Shown here: piece by piece, positions 55,467 through 61,495 of the stretch | How the letters are laid out: each line of letters begins with the position of its first letter | How positions within the stretch are numbered: position 1 is the stretch's first letter | The notes under the pieces: model-generated | Databases searched by the model: none | Seen by the model: the letters and a program-made list of their open reading frames with translations, nothing else | What the model was told of the DNA's origin: nothing | Source of the DNA: Candidatus Hydrogenedentota bacterium | GTDB taxonomy: Bacteria; Hydrogenedentota; Hydrogenedentia; Hydrogenedentales; SLHB01 | Assembly (NCBI GenBank): GCA_963745075.1 | Contig: CAVUWV010000008.1 | Coordinates: 64,001-128,000, forward strand | Direction: 5' to 3' | Length of the DNA: 64,000 nucleotides | Program-made: the position numbers and the translations under genes

Positions 55467-58400
55467 ATGTTTCAACAGCGCTATCGTCACGGACAGGGCC
55501 TCGTACGGCAGGTATTGGCCGGGCAACGCGACGCGTATGGAAAACTGGTCGACCGCTATCTGGCCGCCGCGTTTTCCGTCGCATTCCCCCATACCCGCAA
55601 CCGTCTCGACGCGGAGGACGCGGCGCAGGAGGGATTCTTACGCGCGTTGCAAACCCTTGACCGGCTGCGGGATCCGGAACGATTCGCGCCTTGGCTCCTG
55701 ACGATCGTTCGCAACATTTCCGTGGATATCGTTGCAGCCCGGGAGCGCGAGCGAAAATCCGGGACGAAAGTGGCGTCGGACGATGCAACGTGGATACCGG
55801 ATATGGAAAAGCGCGATATGTGGGCAAAACTGCACGAACAGATCCAACAACTCGACGATCAACATCGCGAGGTGCTGATGCTCTTCTACTTCGCGGGACA
55901 TTCCGCCAAGGAAATCGCCGGTCTACTCAATACGTCGCACGAGGCCGTGCGCAAACGTCTTCAACGTGCGCGCGAAGCGCTCGGTGCGCGGATGCTTGAG
56001 GAAATTGAGCCGAAACAGGCGCTGAGACCTTTGCTCAGAGCGCGCGGTACAAAGATTACCGCAGCAGCCCTTGCCGTGCCAGTGACGTGGCAAGCAACGG
56101 CCAGCGCAACAGCGGGTGGTGCGGGCAGCGCATTCGTCGGAGGCGCCGCGGTCAAATGGCTGGCCGGTGCAGCACTCGTGTGCGCGGGTGTAGCTGGTTA
56201 TTGGGCCACGTCCCGGACAACCGAACTTCCACCTGCAACGCGCTCCGTAACGCCGGGCAGTTCAGTGGTCGTTTCTCAGCCAGAGCCGTCGCGTTCGGCC
56301 CCGAATGCGCGACGCGCGATCGCGAGCCAAAACGCGCAATCCGCGAATGCGAAGATGACCGAACCTAGCCCCGCGCCGCCGGACGGTGGTATCGGCGTTA
56401 TTCGTGGACGCGTGGAAACTGTGAACCACCTTCCAATCCCCGGTGCTCAGGTACTACTCCATCGTGCAACGGTAGATGGACACTGGGTCGTGGACTGGAC
56501 CGAGAAGTTCCGGACCGCGACCTCCGCCGCGGACGGATCCTTCACCTTTGAGGGTCTACCGTTCGAGTCCTACGACGTACTTGCGGCAATGGACCACGCG
56601 CTATCCTGGGAGGAGGTGTCCGTCGATGAACACACTCCGTCGACTGCGATAACGCTCCAGCCTCGTCCCGCAGAGTCACTGCGTGGACGCGTGGTGAACG
56701 GTGACGGGGTCCCGGTAACGGGTGCGATTGTGTACCCCGACAGGCAATTGGAGGGTGGTCCTTCTTCCTGTAATTGGAATCGGAAGGCGGCTCTGGCGGA
56801 ACAAACGGACGAAACCGGCACGTTCACCTTTCCCGCGTTGTGGAGCGGTCATTGGCGCTTTAACATCCGCGCCCAGGACTACGCCACGAAGACGACGGAA
56901 TTCGTGCCGACGGGGGGTGATGAAGCAAGATTCGTGATTGATCGTGGCAGCGCGATTCGCGGTACGGTCGTCCGTACGGACACGGGTAACCCGATTCCCG
57001 GTGTCCGAGTGGATTACTTCGGCGCTCAGGAATGGGATAAGAAGAACGCGACGACAAATGATTCGGGACAATTCGAGTTTACTTGCGTGGAGCCCGGCGA
57101 CCGCTCGGTAGGATTAAACGACGCACGTTGGGCACCGCTTGACGGCTTGACGCGTGTCACGGTTCCGGTCGATCGCCCCGCGGAAGACGTCGTCATTCGC
57201 GCGTCGGAAGGGGCTACTCTGTCGGGGCGCATCTACGATGCCGGCACGCAGCAAGGTGTTCCGGGTGTCAAGGTGTACGTGCAATGCCGGGACATCGATT
57301 ACTATCGGACAAGCGAGCCCAGCGACGCGACCGGCCGGTACACGATTACGGGGCTGTCCGCCGGCGCCTACACGATTAGCCGGAGCCGGTTCATTGAAGG
57401 CTATCCTTTTCCTGAGGAGCCGTTTGAGCCGGAGTTGGATCTCGCCTTCGGCGAACATGTCATCCATGACATTCCCATGTCGCGCGGGATATCCATCACC
57501 GGTCGAATAACCGATCCCAATGGTGCGCCGATTCGGGGAGCGCAATTGAGCACCATTGTTGGCGATGACCGGCATCAGTACGAGTACTCAAAGGCGGATG
57601 GATCGTTTACGCTGATGGGATACCGTTCCGGCGATACCGTAACGATCAACGTCGAGAAAGAGGGTTTCGGGCTGAGCGCCTCAAGTCCAATCACGATCCG
57701 CGACACCGATGTATCCCGCGTCGACATTATGTTGGAGCCGGAGGCTTTTGTCGAAGGTGTTATCGTGGACGGATCCGGTCGCCCTCTCCCACATGCCAAA
57801 GTCCTCGCGCTGGCTGAGACAAAGGGCGTGGCCTTCATACCCACCACGACTTCGGGAACCGACGGACGTTTCGTGTGTGGAAGACTTCGTTCCGGCTCGT
57901 ACAAACTCAGCGTGGAGCCGCGCGGCGCGGAACGGTCGGTTGACACCGATACCACTGTATCAGTCGTGTCTGGGGAGCGGCTTGAAGGTATTCGCGTCGT
58001 TTGCCCGGCACCGGAAGAAAGGGCCGGTTTTCAGATCAGCGGGCGTGTCGTCGATGCCGCGGGCAAACCCGTCGTAGGAGCAACGGTCCGTGGTGAGAAC
58101 TACGCGGCGGGGTCGCGCGAGTCGACGACGACCGATGAGGACGGACGATTCACTCTCAACGGACTCGCCTTCGTACGATACGATTTGCGCGCATATACCG
58201 AAGGCGAGGAGTATCTGGGCGGAAGTGACGGAATACCTGCGGGAACCACGAATGCGGTAATTGTCTCAAGCGCGAATAACGCGCCCCCGGGGACAATTGC
58301 GGGACGAGTTGTCCGCGCTGACACCGGCGAGCCAATCCAGGATTTTGATGTCAACGCCAAGGGTAATGCCGTTCCGGTTCATGATCGGGAAGGGCGGTTC

Positions 58401-59667
58401 CAATTGCACGATCTGCCGGCGGGCGATGCGGCCGTATGGGTTCGTGCAAAGGACTTCTTGATCGGATACGAGAAGGCCGTTGTGGCGCCGGTGGGGCAAC
58501 TCTCAGCGGAAGTCGTCGTTCGACTGCGACCGGCGGCACGCATGGAGGGACTCGTACAAGACGCGTCGGGAACGCCGCTCCAGGGCGCACGCATATTCGT
58601 TGATGGACTTGTCTTCAATAGGGACGACCCGCGCTCTGCGGCTTCCGAAACCCGCGATGACGGGGTATTCGCCGTTGACGGGCTTGACCCGCGGGGTGCG
58701 CTGATCGCCATCGTGCATCCTACCCACGCGCCGCTTGTCGTACGCGTGGCGCCGAGTGAAATGGGGGCTCAACGGCAAACGTTTACCGTGGGCTCGGGTG
58801 GCGAAATCGAAGGGACAGTCCGTTACGACGGTAGGCCTGTCCCCGATAGTATTGTTTGGGTCTATATGGCCGACCTGGGTCCCGGCGCCATGTTCAATGG
58901 TCGCACGGACAAAAACGGCATGTATCGCATTGCCGATGTTCCTCCCGGTGCGGGGGAAGGGGGCGCCCGGCTGGCTTCCGGCTACGAAGGACTAAACACG
59001 GATTCGTTTCACGTGACGCAGTACGTGACCGTACAAGATGGTGAAGTCACATGCATGGATTTTGATTTCTTACCGCAATCGGGTGTCCTGGAGGGAATAG
59101 TATCCCTTGATGGCGTACCCATTGACGCGTCCGTCCGGCTGTATGTCACAACGCCCTCCGGAGAGCAGCAGATGAACACGTTTGCCGATTTATCAGGCGC
59201 CTATCGGTTCGACCGTGTCCCGCCGGGCGATGGAAAGGTCGTTGCGATTGTCCGTTCCGGAGCGGGAGTGGACGGTTCCAAGCGTGCCATGGTCCCCGTT
59301 AAGCTGGTTTCGGGAACCACCACGCAGCAGGACATATCCAGGAAGACCGGTGCATCGGTCGCGGTTTATGTTGCCAATCTGGGTGAGGATGAATCGACGA
59401 ATGTCTTTGCGTATTTCGGTGACGTTCGGGCCTATTGAATCGCGTTCAGACCGGGAAATGGTGGGTAGCGCGCGAGCCGCGATCGCACACCGTGGTGATG
59501 ACGGCGCGTATCACTTCACCGGATTGCAGCCCGGAGTCTATACCATCGTCGCGTATACGAATACCAGCCGCAATCCAAACGTCTGGCTCAACACCCGCGC
59601 AACACACCAAGTCATCGAAGTATCGGAAGACGGGAGAACAGCCACCGTCGAATTGAGACTGCCGTAG
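55467..59667 (+). CDS. ECF sigma factor fused via a TM helix to tandem carboxypeptidase-regulatory-like (Ig) domains; +1 frameshift near 59425
   Basis: DAEDAAQEGF..WLLTIVRN; KEIAGLL...VRKRLQRAR; TM; repeated GRVVD..G.PV.GA / TD.DGRF units. The 59182-frame tail DDGAYHFTGLQPGVY continues the repeat. Confidence 0.88.
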
Positions 59668-59846
59668 GTAACCGCGAATGAGCTCTCACGCTACGTAGTC
59701 CCCACCGGAATATCTCGGGACTTTCACACCGAATCGATCCGAACCATCCAAAAGTGTGCATAAGCCGCGCCATAGGCGGAAACGATTGCTGATTCCACCG
59801 GGCCAGCGGCGCGGGGTTCCGCTGGGGCTTGCGCGTCCCGCCAATG

Positions 59847-60244
59847 GGTTCCACTTGGTCGAGTCAGGACACCGATTAGCTCAGAGGAAGAGCAGTGCAC
59901 CGCTAATGCACGGGACGCGGGTTCGATACCCGCATCGGCTACCCTTGGAAAGGGTTGTGGGTGACTACCCACTCGATGGAACCGGAGGCGAAGCGCGGGC
60001 GGCGGGTCCGCCGGCTTGTCGCAGATTCGCCGGCGCATGGCGTCGGGCGGACGGTGGCAGGCAGCATCGGCAGCGGTCCTGCAGCGCGCGGATACCACGC
60101 CGTCGGCGTGGCCAGGGCCGGATGAAGGCCCGCGAGGCGTGCCTCGCGGCGCGGACTTCCGGCGAGGCTGCGCAACCGGCCTGGCTCACGTGGCGCTCCA
60201 CCAACGCTGGTGTGGCGGACTTCCGCCCGGCGCTTCGCTACGGT
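59847..60244 (+). ncRNA. Large structured RNA / leader containing the tRNA-like module, upstream of the SPFH gene
   Basis: Long-range helices 59847-59864/59971-59983 and 59988-60002/60223-60238 with nested hairpins. Confidence 0.55.
59872..59938 (+). tRNA. tRNA-like element (pseudo-tRNA; nominal anticodon GCT)
   Basis: CCGAT/ATCGG acceptor (5 bp only), TA, D arm GCTC-AGAGGAA-GAGC, GTGCA-CCGCTAA-TGCAC, variable GGGAC, T arm GCGGG-TTCGATA-CCCGC; C at position 33; no CCA. Confidence 0.8.
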
Positions 60245-60268
60245 CAATGGCCACGGTGATGAGTTTTA

Positions 60269-60297
60269 ATCGGACCGATCGGTCGGATCGGTCCGAT
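60269..60297. repeat. Palindromic GATCGG-type repeat (related copy at ~16054-16093)
   Basis: ATCGGACCGATC-ggtcg-GATCGGTCCGAT. Confidence 0.7.
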
Positions 60298-60324
60298 CAA
60301 GAAAGGAGAACAAGGAGAAGAAGG

Positions 60325-61432
60325 ATGTTTGGAGTACGGCGCGTACAGATTCGGTCCTTTGAAAAGGGCCTGTTGACGAAGCACGGCGAGTTCGTGCGCG
60401 TGCTGGGACCGGGCCGCTACTGGACCGTCGACGCCGTTGTTGCAGCGGCAGATCGACGTGTCTTCGATGCGGACGCCCTGGATCTGCCACGAACAGTTGG
60501 ACGTGATGATCCGGTCCGGCGCGTTGAAGAGCGACGCGGCCGTGCTCGACCTGGAACAGCATCAGCGTGCGCTGGTGTGGATCGACGGGCGGCTCAATGT
60601 GGTGCTCGGACCGGGGCAGTACGCCTTGTGGACCGGCGCGCGCAAGGTCCGCACGGAGGTCGTCGACACGCAATCGGTCCGCTTCCATCACTTGCAACTG
60701 CATGTGGTGTTGAACGCGCCGGGCGCGGAAGCGGTGTTGAACAAGTACACGGTCGAAGAGGGCCACGTGGGCGTCTATTTCAAGGACGGCGACTACGTCG
60801 AAACTTTGAAGCCGGGCACCTACGCCTTCTGGAAGGACGTGGCGAAGGTCGTTGTGCAGGTGCGCGAAATGCGCGAGTCCGTACTGGACGTCACGGGTCA
60901 GGACATCATCACGCAAGATAAGGTGACGCTCCGCGTAAACGCGGTCGTAACCTTTCGCGTGACCGATGCCCTGAAGGCCGTGTCGACCGTCGACGACGCG
61001 CGGCAGGCCTTGTACCGCGAAGCGCAGTTGGCCTTGCGGGCCGAGGTGGGCGCGCGCGACCTCGACGCGTTGCTCGCGGACAAGATGAGCCTCACCGAGG
61101 CCGTCGAAGCGGGCATCCGCGGCCGCGCCGCGGAGTACGGAATCGCTGTGACCGGATTCGGTATCCGCGACATCATCTTGCCGGGCGAGATGCGGGATCT
61201 GATGAACAAGGTCACGGAGGCCAAGAAGGCCGCCGAAGCCAACTTCATCACGCGCCGCGAGGAAACGGCCGCCATGCGCAGCCAGGCCAACACCGCCAAG
61301 ATGTTGGCCGACAACCCGACGCTGATGCGGTTGCGTGAGCTGGAGGTGCTCGAAAAGATCGCCGCCACTTCCAAGCTCAACGTCGTGTTGGGCGAGAAGG
61401 GTCTCGCGGATCGGGTTGTGAATCTGTTGTAG
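60325..61432 (+). CDS. SPFH/band-7 'slipin' family protein (+1 frameshift at ~60433)
   Basis: AGGAG-rich RBS, ATG 60325; QDIITQDKVTLRVN, ALRAEVG..LDALL, IRDIILP, RSQANTAKML.DNPTLMRLRELE. Deleting G60433 gives YWTVDPLLQR. Confidence 0.88.
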
Positions 61433-61456
61433 GCTGGAGACCGGAGGCTGGAGTAG

Positions 61457-61495
61457 AACGGGGCCCACACTGAATCGGTGTGGACCCCGTTTTTT
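61457..61495 (+). terminator. Intrinsic terminator after the SPFH gene
   Basis: AACGGGGCCCACAC-tgaatcg-GTGTGGACCCCGTT followed by T-run. Confidence 0.8.

Follow-up and report, generated by a model that had tools for sequence, protein, structure and literature searches.

The locus and its slipin gene

Within the window, by which we mean the whole 64-kb stretch of DNA that was analysed, a structured RNA and a slipin (SPFH/Band_7) gene follow one another on the forward strand, and the two are flanked by genes for an ECF-sigma fusion protein and RecG (Table 1).

Table 1. Coordinates of the RNA and slipin features in the window
Feature	Position	Strand	Basis
P1 stem-loop, 5′ domain; CCAGCGGCGC... 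with ...CCGCC-AAUGG	59803..59847	+	RNAalifold, 30 sequences
Outer helix P2, 5′ strand: GGUUCCA, 5-nt bulge, UCGAGU	59847..59864	+	sequence, fold
tRNA-like domain	59870..59941	+	ARAGORN, Rfam tRNA, covariation of stems across 30 sequences
Acceptor stem, 5 pairs	59872-59876/59934-59938	+	sequence, cmscan alignment
D stem of tRNA-like domain	59879-59882/59890-59893	+	
Anticodon stem, loop CCGCUAA	59895-59899/59907-59911	+	
T stem, canonical T loop	59917-59921/59929-59933	+	
Two small hairpins between tRNA-like domain and closing strand	59941-59955, 59957-59972	+	folds
Outer helix P2, 3′ strand: ACUCGA-UGGAACC	59971..59983	+	sequence, fold
3′ domain	59987..60239	+	RNAalifold on 28 sequences, pair counts, window mapping
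Long-range helix P5	59987-60000 with 60225-60239	+	window coordinates read by eye
Inner helices of 3′ domain	60010-18/60054-62, 60064-67/60210-13, 60075-77/60200-02, 60081-89/60190-98	+	
12-bp palindromic hairpin between RNA and ribosome-binding site	60269..60300	+	fold −23.8 kcal/mol, z −3.65
Purine-rich ribosome-binding region, two GGAG motifs, ATG 60325	60303..60327	+	sequence
Slipin (SPFH/Band_7) gene	60325..61432	+	ORFs, Pfam, alignment with intact homologues
Intrinsic terminator after slipin, U run 3′	61455..61494	+	fold −29.9 kcal/mol, z −5.63

The original prediction had placed a second structured domain, a ribosome-binding site, an SPFH gene and a terminator after a tRNA-shaped cloverleaf, and all of these are present. 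The SPFH assignment holds (Band_7 domain, Pfam PF01145, 3e-29), the ATG aligns with the N-termini of the homologues, which are about 368 aa long, and the gene aligns with intact homologues at 91% and 81% identity. What had escaped notice is that the frame is broken: the ATG at 60325 lies in frame 1 and the body (60437-61432) in frame 2, one extra base near 60433 shifting the frame (+1) between codons D and P. The N-terminal parts are intact in the two same-genus genomes G001 and G002. The break may be an assembly error, because other genes of this genome are broken in the same way; if it is real, the protein partner is dead in this genome. It may be noted that contigs from four DNA sequencing runs span only 60054-60398 of the locus, short of the frame break. 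A further frameshift, where the upstream 1323-aa gene ends, was also considered and dropped, as no Pfam family was found in the 59182-59664 frame.

The predicted model of the slipin begins with beta strands in place of a hydrophobic helix, so that the protein would be soluble, as originally proposed, and have no membrane anchor. The stomatin core domain, from a protein whose structure was solved as 16-mer rings, matches the model at Z 17-18, and a long C-terminal helix occupies residues 287-348. The layout of beta repeats, SPFH domain and long helix resembles that seen in major vault protein (MVP): residues 6-327 of the model align to MVP residues 323-688 (Z 11.0 and 10.4 over 224-226 residues, rmsd 6.7-6.8), and no sequence similarity to MVP was found at a corresponding level.

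Structure of the RNA

The region 59803-60239 encodes a structured RNA of about 440 nt made of three domains, namely the P1 stem-loop, a middle part with the tRNA-shaped cloverleaf and a large 3′ domain closed by P5. The proposal of a pseudo-tRNA inside a larger RNA is therefore upheld by a conserved fold with covariation support, except that the 5′ end lies about 45 nt upstream of the outer helix first described and begins with P1. When the RNAalifold model is mapped onto the window, 13 of the 14 mapped P1 pairs are standard; the third pair changes from A-U to G-C in 3 sequences, and in the four inner pairs both sides change 9, 2, 11 and 12 times. An early idea, in which a GUUCCG block pairs with GAGGGAGGCGG, was given up, RNAalifold instead pairing these two blocks with CCAGCGGCGC on the 5′ side (P1) and with CCGCCGCCC far downstream (P5).

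The 5′ half has 31 pairs, with 95.9% of the cells paired against at most 48.7% with partners slid and 18 pairs with two-sided changes against at most 8 (0 of 500 shuffles as high), and the 3′ domain has 42 pairs, with 90.4% paired against at most 48.5% and 30 pairs with double changes against at most 17 (again 0 of 500 shuffles), these contrasts being inflated because the RNAalifold structures were derived from the same alignments that were then counted; the sequences are also mutually related and mostly from one phylum. A single-sequence fold of 59797-60245 also reproduces P5 and the inner helices (z −3.09), and within the genus both sides change in 5 P5 pairs.

The outer helix P2, which the original prediction had taken as the enclosure of the cloverleaf, is present in the sequence and in the folds, its 7-bp part forming whether the minimum-energy or the centroid structure of 59840-59990 is taken (−61.7 kcal/mol versus −50.0 ± 3.8 for shuffles, z −3.08, 1 of 200 as good). 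Both G001 and G002 retain it in a shifted register, and one of its pairs has undergone a double change from C-G to U-A. Across the family, duplex folding of the flanks gave weak and inconsistent pairings with no Planctomycete counterpart found, and where the 5′ GGGUU has an A-for-G variant, 2 loci have a compensating change and about 4 lack one, as judged by eye. P2 is a feature of the window's genus only, and the family-wide brackets of the tRNA-like domain are P1 and the long-range P5. The two small hairpins that follow the cloverleaf vary in number and sequence across the family; their fragment 59941..59972 folds no better than shuffles when taken alone (z −1.04), and the second of them is T-arm-like in G001 and G002.

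Downstream of the RNA, the palindromic hairpin at 60269..60300 is one instance of a dispersed repeat, whose 10-mer arm is present at 94 places in the genome; the same palindrome is found in unrelated contigs from other sequencing runs. It is missing at the equivalent place in other family members and probably lies outside the RNA family. A small reading frame after a Shine-Dalgarno-like GGGAGG was rejected, since by eye the ATG of one locus (L026) is not preserved elsewhere. A sigma-70 scan gave no promoter near the RNA, and sigma-54 spacing misfits by eye. Rfam holds no family for the RNA of about 440 nt or for the b7a-tRNA, the RNA with which it is compared below.

The tRNA-shaped domain

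The complete cloverleaf predicted at 59872-59938 was recovered by ARAGORN as the sole tRNA-type gene in the window (59870-59943, 'Ser gct') and by cmscan, where the Rfam tRNA family RF00005 matches 59870-59941 with 47.9 bits (E 3.9e-07), above the gathering score of 29. The grounds on which a working tRNA had been thought unlikely are all there. The 7-bp acceptor of a functional tRNA, with 1:72 and 2:71 paired or the initiator-type exception, is absent, these two positions being non-standard in the cmscan alignment (C x U and A x C), and by eye the stem has 3-6 pairs among family members. Position 33 is C59901 in place of U33, and the domain continues 3′ into CTACCC with no NCCA; by our own count, CCA is encoded by 41 of the 43 other canonical-looking tRNA genes of the genome. 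A normal class II tRNA-Ser(GCU) sits on a different contig of the same genome.

The anticodon loop is the most variable part of the domain and the elbow is nearly invariant. The window has anticodon GCU with C33 as against GAU with G33 in G001 and G002, with compensatory changes between them in the acceptor and anticodon stems, and ARAGORN reports more than 20 different anticodons across the loci (including AGG, AUG, AUC, UUA, ACU and four-base ones). In an alignment of 30 sequences covariation is present in the acceptor, anticodon and T stems. The D and T arms, which form the elbow, are retained, with G18, G19 and a canonical T loop, and the acceptor end is short, mismatched and runs into the rest of the RNA, while the anticodon loop is free to vary across the family. 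In related genomes, tRNA-Lys genes share about 72-75% identity with the body of the domain. We conclude that the domain is a tRNA mimic, neither a working nor a decayed tRNA.

Conservation of the RNA with slipin genes

A covariance model of P1 and the tRNA-like domain (R1) was used to search the regions around slipin homologues; loci detected in the analysis number 545. Full-length matches of 74.9-155.5 bits were obtained in 71 of the 80 slipin loci and in the window. All the R1 matches lie upstream of the slipin gene on its strand, with the 3′ end at a median of −455 from the gene start, and in 8 of the 72 strong matches (71 loci and the window) a gap of 800-1700 nt separates the end of the RNA from the gene. 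Of the 9 loci lacking a strong match, 4 have less than 360 nt of upstream sequence, 3 have a weak match at the expected place and 2 (L074 and L086) have none. R1 also matches each of 8 further loci belonging to the window's order, and among the metagenome loci with enough upstream sequence, 6 of 9 gave strong matches, 2 scored 52-61 bits and 1 scored 21 bits. Whole-genome scoring showed that ordinary tRNA-Lys genes reach about 75-81 bits with R1, because of which scores in this range do not identify the RNA without an adjoining slipin gene.

The phyla carrying both RNA and slipin are Planctomycetota, Desulfobacterota, Lindowbacteria and others, and the RNA of the window is the local member of a family that, in several phyla, immediately precedes soluble slipin genes on their own strand. 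It is present in one copy in its own genome. The slipin gene is patchily distributed, being present in 11 of 133 genomes of the window's order; a DNA search of 61 related genomes matched only G001 and G002, and a metagenome scan gave nothing closer than 62% protein identity. The RNA travels with the slipin gene as a unit, and the downstream genes are mostly unrelated.

RNA repair genes and tRNA arrays

As had been noted from the sequence, no rtcB, rtcA, rtcR or TROVE (Ro60) gene lies near the RNA-slipin locus. RtcB and RlaP of this genome are encoded on another contig (C36), and RtcA, RtcR and TROVE were not found in the genome, which is 89.7% complete; the RNA-slipin module stands alone here with no repair gene adjoining. 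The link with Rtc loci that the original prediction drew is sound for the class: a b7a-tRNA paired with a Band-7 protein is in print according to the accessible part of bioRxiv 10.1101/312249, and RtcB/RtcA-type genes lie 3′ of slipin in 5 of the 61 homologous loci by blast clusters, with RtcB and RtcA confirmed by Pfam in both of the scanned loci among these five (L051 and L064). For the window's subfamily the repair link is indirect, because Rtc genes adjoin slipin in only these 5 loci. RlaP was identified 3′ of slipin by Pfam in one locus (L059, from the completely sequenced isolate Adhaeretor mobilis HG15A2) and by blast cluster only in two more, in one of which (L025) a Pfam scan found no family. 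In Citrobacter a divergent rtcR lies next to slipin and a nucleotidyltransferase gene. The enterobacterial rtcR-slipin loci (L146 and L147) gave no R1 match at E 0.001 and no Rfam tRNA match at E 0.01 in the spacer, hence homology with the RtcR-type versions is unsupported here.

In the 51 loci for which the upstream sequence extends to 4 kb or more, at least 10 same-strand tRNA genes precede the RNA in 21 loci and at least 20 in 14. These arrays have up to 30 same-strand tRNA genes, mostly without encoded CCA, and in many Planctomycetota a long one lies ahead of the RNA. The window itself has no tRNA array, its only tRNA-like element by ARAGORN being the one described above. In Anabaena, loss of a repressor derepresses the slipin gene alr0740 42-fold and rtcB 77-fold, and the same repressor also controls a long tRNA operon (PMC10272220); in the accessible part of that paper the slipin gene appears only in a table of derepressed genes and the term 'tRNA-like' is not used. 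Santamaria-Gomez et al. suggested that the tRNAs of long arrays could serve as sponges for toxin RNases (PMC8421152), and the accessible text of their paper contains no occurrence of SPFH, Band 7 or stomatin.

Interpretation and alternatives

We consider somewhat probable, as the best reading, that the RNA is the b7a-tRNA, that it is the RNA partner of a slipin oligomer and that its tRNA elbow has a role in translational stress and RNA damage. The RNA would be made together with the slipin mRNA or just ahead of it. By analogy with Y RNA and Ro60, or vault RNA and the vault, it may be the partner of a ring- or cage-forming slipin oligomer, in which the tRNA-shaped domain would offer a tRNA elbow to tRNA-handling proteins such as repair enzymes or tRNA-cutting nucleases. 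The particle would therefore, in this proposal, act in the response to translational stress and to RNA damage, alongside RtcB-type ligases and spare tRNA arrays.

An alternative to which we give a real though minor chance is that the 440-nt structure is a purely cis-acting leader, i.e. the 5′ untranslated region of the slipin mRNA with no protein-partner role, setting expression through attenuation, through RNase P/RNase Z processing within the tRNA-shaped part, or by sensing when its own anticodon loop is cut. As a leader would, the RNA always immediately precedes the gene on its strand, with a fairly constant spacing, and in most Planctomycete members a U-rich tract seen by eye after the P5 3′ strand is terminator- or attenuator-like, the last stretch of these RNAs also being able to form a small local hairpin. 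Also, tRNA genes co-transcribed with a protein gene are known, as in the tufB operon. But the tract is missing in the window and its genus, the longer spacing of 800-1700 nt in 8 of the 72 strong matches sits poorly with a leader, and such a large RNA, so conserved across phyla, would be unusual for a ligand-free one. A leader is in any case compatible with the partnership of RNA and slipin oligomer favoured above.

A bolder extension of that partnership, which we hold to be rather doubtful, is that the soluble slipin forms a vault-like cytoplasmic shell with the 440-nt RNA as its resident, the tRNA-shaped domain drawing damaged tRNAs, tRNA-cutting nucleases or repair enzymes into the shell or to its surface under translational stress. 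If so, bacteria would have a counterpart to the eukaryotic vault with its vault RNA, perhaps one related to it, and in Planctomycetota the particle would be physically coupled to a spare set of tRNA genes.

It is distinctly unlikely, in our estimate, that the RNA is a stand-alone decoy soaking up tRNA-cutting toxins or phage or host anticodon nucleases, with slipin as a mere neighbour. The variable anticodon loop on a nearly invariant elbow would then reflect an arms race, and the module does adjoin long tRNA arrays, themselves proposed as sponges for toxin RNases in the available part of PMC8421152; however, the large conserved 3′ domain and P1, as well as the near-obligate linkage to slipin (71 of 80 loci), are left unexplained, and a single copy per genome makes a poor sponge. 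That the element is a tRNA gene in decay, or a scar left by an integrated element, with helices beside it that arose by chance, is very improbable: the domain scores as a tRNA, its body resembles tRNA-Lys and slipin is patchily distributed, but the element and its flanking helices are conserved across phyla with compensatory changes in all variable stems, and this reading is refuted in practice because a decaying gene would not keep its pairing as the sequence changes. A working but unusual tRNA, for example a class I tRNA reading AGY codons, is hardly conceivable, even though the cloverleaf is complete and has G18, G19 and a canonical T loop, given the missing CCA in a genome that mostly encodes it, C33, the two unpaired top acceptor positions, the different anticodon in the same-genus copies and the normal tRNA-Ser(GCU) elsewhere in the genome.

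Significance

A large structured RNA that occurs across several phyla with strong covariation has so far had no Rfam family. RNAs of such size and conservation are rare, and they have often proved to be ribozymes, scaffolds or cages. For the nine-year-old prediction of a b7a-tRNA/Band-7 pair, boundaries, three domains and testable helices are now given, and the window shows that the RNA-slipin pair can exist without an adjoining repair gene. The association brings together three poorly understood subjects: SPFH proteins that are soluble, RNA repair of the RtcB type, and the long 'spare' tRNA arrays with their response to antibiotics that block translation. For the window as such the result is modest: it adds a member to the class, and the protein gene of that member may be broken.

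Comparison with known systems

In the L-array/TrcR translational-stress regulon of Anabaena, a tRNA array, rtcB and slipin are switched on together, as far as the accessible parts of PMC8421152 and PMC10272220 describe it. Arrays of up to 30 same-strand tRNA genes likewise precede the RNA in many homologous loci, but the L-array unit of at least 20 dense same-strand tRNA genes is absent from the window and is found in 14 of 51 loci.

The comparison with the eukaryotic vault (MVP cage, vault RNA and TEP1) uses the domain boundaries of MVP. In the predicted model the slipin, like MVP, has beta repeats in a stack, then an SPFH 'shoulder' and one long helix, and a dedicated small RNA is genetically tied to the protein, whereas slipin has about 368 aa against about 860 for MVP. 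The true bacterial MVP homologues are other, larger proteins (bioRxiv 10.1101/872010, in its accessible part). Looked at as candidate earlier accounts, neither that preprint on the large MVP homologues nor one on TEP1 (bioRxiv 10.64898/2026.05.01.722283) mentions this slipin or RNA in the text accessible.

With canonical tRNAs, tmRNA and viral tRNA-like structures the window element shares a cloverleaf with a conserved elbow; unlike canonical tRNAs and the other mimics it has no free CCA end and is embedded in a larger RNA. It differs from tmRNA in having no tmRNA-type reading frame, and its permuted tmRNA match of 12.6 bits is a chance one.

Ro60 (Rsr) with its Y RNAs, especially YrlA, offers a similar arrangement, a structured non-coding RNA that includes a tRNA-like module and is encoded next to a protein that forms rings and serves as RNA binder or scaffold, in RtcB-type operons, the tRNA-like part being thought to protect the RNA or to recruit other proteins. 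However, this 89.7%-complete genome has no TROVE gene, there is no Rfam match to Y RNA or YrlA here even at E 10, and the cloverleaf of the window follows the normal order, its anticodon arm being complete. In YrlA the RNA ends are said to exit through the anticodon side.

Burroughs and Aravind (Nucleic Acids Res 2016) reportedly predicted a pair of a Band-7 protein and a tRNA-like RNA within RNA-repair systems. This pair, with its 'b7a-tRNA', is in print through Burroughs and Aravind 2016 as cited in bioRxiv 10.1101/312249, and according to the accessible part of that 2018 preprint it had been predicted in silico but at no time confirmed by bench work. Our literature search, whose reach did not extend to Burroughs and Aravind 2016 and its supplements, found no description of the larger RNA. 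The two systems differ in that no repair gene adjoins in the window, the tRNA-like part makes up just 72 nt or so of a conserved RNA that is about 440 nt long, and many Planctomycete members sit behind long tRNA arrays. They agree in having a tRNA-like RNA beside, and co-oriented with, a Band-7 gene whose product is predicted to have no membrane anchor, and in that some homologous loci have RtcB, RtcA or RlaP directly 3′. From this likeness we infer that the RNA and slipin of the window are the b7a-tRNA, as known from its second-hand description, with its Band-7 protein; the RNA-slipin class was already predicted in the literature (2016), and the window adds a further member to it.

The tRNA-shaped element and its enclosing helices

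Over the whole 64 kb of the window ARAGORN called one tRNA-type gene and read it as Ser(GCU), where the original prediction expected a pseudo or undetermined call. The Rfam tRNA model also matches it above the gathering score, yet the pairs 1:72 and 2:71 are non-standard in the Rfam alignment, and because of this the acceptor stem is counted as five pairs. The complete but abnormal cloverleaf of that prediction is present in each of its particulars, since the window sequence also has C at position 33 and continues 3′ of the cloverleaf with CTACCC and not NCCA. The window's own genome has 46 ARAGORN tRNA calls, comprising two odd ones, this element and 43 others, of which 41 encode CCA by manual count of the ARAGORN listing; a normal class II tRNA-Ser(GCU) is present on contig C33. 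The two odd calls (92-94 nt; C18:130906-130997, 'Gly tcc', and C23:57662-57755, 'Pro cgg') look unlike normal tRNAs. No Rfam family besides tRNA matched anywhere in the structured-RNA stretch.

It was further proposed that an outer helix locks the cloverleaf. This helix is present in the window, and its two parts are retained in the same-genus genomes G001 and G002, where one pair is changed on both sides from C-G to U-A and the register is shifted by one base. In the Planctomycete members no consistent pairing of the cloverleaf flanks was found. There the end of the 5′ stem-loop (P1) and the start of the long-range helix closing the 3′ domain (P5) lie near the place that the outer helix has in the window, and therefore P1 and P5 bring the flanks together. 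By these comparisons the lock is real but local, and the general feature is a tRNA-shaped domain suspended between two conserved helices, without free ends. Some slipin loci have additional T-arm-like hairpins, or part of a second tRNA-like module, beside the main cloverleaf (L002/L003 at 1613-1629, and the upstream regions of L091, L098 and L127); in G001/G002 a canonical T loop lies on the second small hairpin.

Features of the RNA and slipin locus (window positions)
Feature	Position	Description
Upstream gene	55467-59438	1323-aa ECF-type sigma factor (regions 2 and 4) fused to at least 9 carboxypeptidase-regulatory-like domains
P1	59803-59816 with 59829-59847	5′ block CCAGCGGCGC... pairs with block ending AUGG, directly before linker (RNAalifold)
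Outer helix	59847-59864/59971-59983	7-bp part in minimum-energy and centroid folds (z -3.08; 1/200 shuffles as good)
tRNA-type gene	59870-59943	ARAGORN, whole window
Rfam tRNA match	59870-59941	47.9 bits (gathering score 29)
Acceptor stem	59872-59876/59934-59938	5 pairs
Cloverleaf (middle domain)		Double changes at 3 inner acceptor pairs, all 5 anticodon-stem pairs, 2 T-stem pairs
Position 33	59901	C
Two small hairpins	59941-59955; 59957-59972	Between cloverleaf and closing strand of outer helix (folds)
P5	59987-60000/60225-60239	Closes 3′ domain; across the family, GAGGGAGGCGG block pairs with CCGCCGCCC...GGC block ~250-380 nt downstream (RNAalifold)
Palindrome	60269-60300	12 bp, just 5′ of ribosome-binding site; copy of a dispersed repeat (10-base arm 94 times in genome, often in tandem-like runs), recurring on unrelated contigs from two further metagenome runs
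Slipin start	60325	ATG
Surplus base	between 60430-60432 and 60434-60436	Between D and P codons
Band_7 ORF	60437-61432	Pfam, 3e-29

A three-domain RNA with covariation

Conserved blocks in the homologous loci begin about 70 nt upstream of the cloverleaf and end about 60-130 nt short of the start codon. RNAalifold on sequence-based alignments arranges them in three domains, namely P1, the cloverleaf and a 3′ domain in which P5 encloses a hairpin domain as well as three helices that link the two most conserved blocks. The third pair of P1 changes from A-U to G-C in 3 sequences and its four inner pairs have 9, 2, 11 and 12 double changes. Covariation, named beforehand as a check, bears out this anatomy. 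In the 5′ half (31 pairs) 95.9% of cells are paired and 18 pairs have double changes, against at most 48.7% and 8 with the partners slid, and in the 3′ domain (42 pairs) the values are 90.4% and 30, against at most 48.5% and 17, with 0 of 500 shuffles as high in either; the structures come from the very alignments in which pairs were counted, and the sequences are interrelated, both of which favour the observed values, and the margins over the controls are nevertheless large. The inner helices of the 3′ domain map to standard pairs in the window. P5 was placed there by eye (MAFFT misaligned it), the single-sequence fold of 59797-60245 contains it (z -3.09), and it is retained in the three-sequence fold of the window, G001 and G002 with 5 pairs changed on both sides.

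Across the family the D and T arms hardly vary, the acceptor stem has 3-6 pairs by eye, and either C or U occupies position 33. The anticodons read by ARAGORN include Lys, Pro(AGG), His(AUG), Asp(AUC), 'stop'(UUA), Ser(ACU), Thr(AGU), Val(AAC), four-base and others, and the anticodon loop is unconstrained. With such a variable loop, near-invariant D and T arms and a short acceptor, it is the tRNA elbow that is kept and not decoding. A pseudogene, an integration scar and a working tRNA are all excluded by the covariation and the variable anticodon.

Linkage to the slipin gene

The upstream regions of G001 and G002 have the layout of the window, with the cloverleaf read as Ile(GAU) by ARAGORN. 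Compared with the window, these genomes have CUGGU/ACCAG in place of CCGAU/AUCGG in the acceptor stem, UUGCC/GGCAA in place of GUGCA/UGCAC in the anticodon stem and CGGAUAA in place of CCGCUAA in the anticodon loop. As the original prediction suggested, we collected the regions upstream of slipin homologues, using the best 80 of 545 stretches that encode a slipin relative (599 candidates, species genomes). These are mostly from Planctomycetota, with some Desulfobacterota, one Lindowbacteria genome, Phycisphaerales and others. Built from 32 sequences, a covariance model of the 5′ stem-loop and cloverleaf matched over its full length, at 74.9-155.5 bits, in 71 of the 80 loci and the window. All these matches lie upstream and on the strand of the gene, with the median 3′ end at -455 from the gene start. 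The match ends less than 700 nt from the gene in 64 of these 72 cases and at 800-1700 nt in 8, while ordinary tRNAs of the same 80 loci score at most 62 bits. Nine loci lack a strong match: four (L029, L039, L044, L079) have less than 360 nt of upstream sequence, three (L082, L061, L077) have weak matches in the expected place, and L074 and L086 have no match upstream of slipin. All 8 additional loci of the window's order match (78-133 bits), and 13 metagenome loci gave 6 strong matches, 2 at 52-61 bits, 1 at 21 bits and 4 cases without upstream sequence.

Slipin is patchy in the window's order (11 of 133 genomes). On whole-genome scoring with the model, more than 100 bits was reached only in the window's genome, which has one copy of the RNA, and in G001, G002 and G019. 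Because tRNA-Lys genes of the ordinary kind score about 75-81 bits here, the weaker copies of genus g45 are recognisable only by their place beside the gene. In genome G041, where the slipin query had no match, a tRNA-like element called with a four-base anticodon lies on a 1.9-kb contig (C444:344-419, L142). The ~450-nt spacers between rtcR (or DUF3811) and slipin in Citrobacter (L146, 4547-4994) and E. coli (L147) gave no RNA-model or Rfam tRNA match; a tRNA-like RNA there, if any, would be too diverged for both.

Slipin homologues have about 366-370 aa. In the window, the frame opened at the slipin ATG encodes the counterpart of their first 37 residues and a different frame encodes the body, with one surplus base in the assembled sequence that may be a real break or an error; the N-terminal parts are intact in G001 and G002. 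On contig C36 of the same assembly (172600-176655, L021-L023) rtcB is broken over at least 3 frames, and beside it a dihydroxy-acid/6-phosphogluconate dehydratase C-terminal domain is broken over 2. These split genes point to indel errors in the assembly, at least on C36. This contig may lie outside the same replicon, or even be from another organism, because its G+C is lower (0.557 vs about 0.59-0.60).

Repair genes and tRNA arrays

Blast clustering at 61 loci showed the genes downstream of slipin to be mostly unrelated among loci. RtcB/RtcA-type genes lie directly 3′ of slipin in 5 of the 61, and Pfam confirmed RtcB and RtcA in L051 and L064, the two scanned. RlaP was found by Pfam in L059; L025 and L062 share its blast cluster, and the Pfam scan of the L025 protein gave no family. 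In the Citrobacter record rtcR is divergent from slipin and a nucleotidyltransferase. These RtcB/RtcA, RlaP and rtcR neighbours tie the slipin family to the system of a Band-7 protein and its Band-7-associated tRNA-like RNA (b7a-tRNA), and the 2016 abstract of Burroughs and Aravind reportedly agrees with a Band-7/b7a-tRNA/RtcB description. According to a 2018 YrlA preprint (bioRxiv 10.1101/312249), the Band-7 protein with a predicted b7a-tRNA beside RtcB comes from Burroughs and Aravind and was unvalidated at that time.

In the 51 loci whose upstream sequence spans 4 kb or more, counting the tRNA-like element itself, ARAGORN calls ahead of slipin number at least 5 in 24, at least 10 in 21 and at least 20 in 14 (maximum 30), with none on the opposite strand. 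CCA is near the 3′ end in only 108 of 608 calls. The order Trp, Thr, several Arg, Cys recurs, and the array stops about 30-40 nt 5′ of the RNA. Examples within 5 kb of slipin in the 80 loci are L059, L093, L060, L034 and L028.

Predicted structure of slipin

The AlphaFold model of an intact homologue 91% identical to the window slipin (mean pLDDT 82.7) has three five-stranded beta units (3-47, 71-114, 138-181), an SPFH core and a long helix (287-348). Its SPFH part aligns to stomatin core domains (Z 17-18) and to stomatin, prohibitin and HflK/C ring structures (Z 14-17). Residues 6-327 align to 323-688 of two major vault protein chains (Z 11.0 and 10.4; 224-226 residues; rmsd 6.7-6.8), a stretch that we take to comprise the final repeat domains and the shoulder and to reach into the cap helix. 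The N-terminal unit occurs in extra copies in longer members of the family (P0004, P0006 and P0020, of 430-501 aa, have 1-2 more of ~65 residues each), which resembles the variable repeat-domain number of a vault-type protein. By these likenesses a soluble slipin ring or shell is plausible, as a resemblance and not a demonstration.

Discussion

The window most likely contains a member of the b7a-tRNA/Band-7 class of Hydrogenedentes type; among named proteins, the one closest to its slipin is annotated Candidatus Hydrogenedentes. The comparisons above establish the anatomy of the RNA, about 440 nt long with its tRNA-shaped domain presented between two helices, and its linkage to the slipin gene. 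We infer from them a partnership with slipin, in which the RNA would be produced with, or just ahead of, the soluble vault-like protein and would act jointly with it when translation is stressed or RNA is damaged. The chief alternative is a leader that acts purely in cis. In keeping with that, a U-rich tract (GGCGUUUUU and similar) right after the 3′ strand of P5 in most Planctomycete members (L026, L027, L036, L053, L062, L071, L096 and others) fits an attenuator and could equally be the end of a separate RNA; the window and its genus lack it.

The class is already in print as a prediction. Four points may be new: that the RNA has three domains backed by covariation, that the class occurs without repair genes, that it is coupled directly to long tRNA arrays in Planctomycetota, and that the protein has a predicted vault-like fold. 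We found no paper describing these four, though Burroughs and Aravind 2016 and its supplements may cover some. When the TrcR repressor is lost in Anabaena (PMC10272220), levels rise 71-fold for alr0739, 42-fold for the slipin gene alr0740 and 77-fold for rtcB, and the tRNA operon is derepressed. Santamaria-Gomez et al. (PMC8421152) describe long tRNA arrays as silent operons induced with rtcB by translation inhibitors, in 7 phyla including Planctomycetes, and the words SPFH, Band 7 and stomatin are absent from that article. The window is without any array; the arrays at slipin loci resemble these 'L-arrays' and are there physically joined to the RNA-slipin unit.
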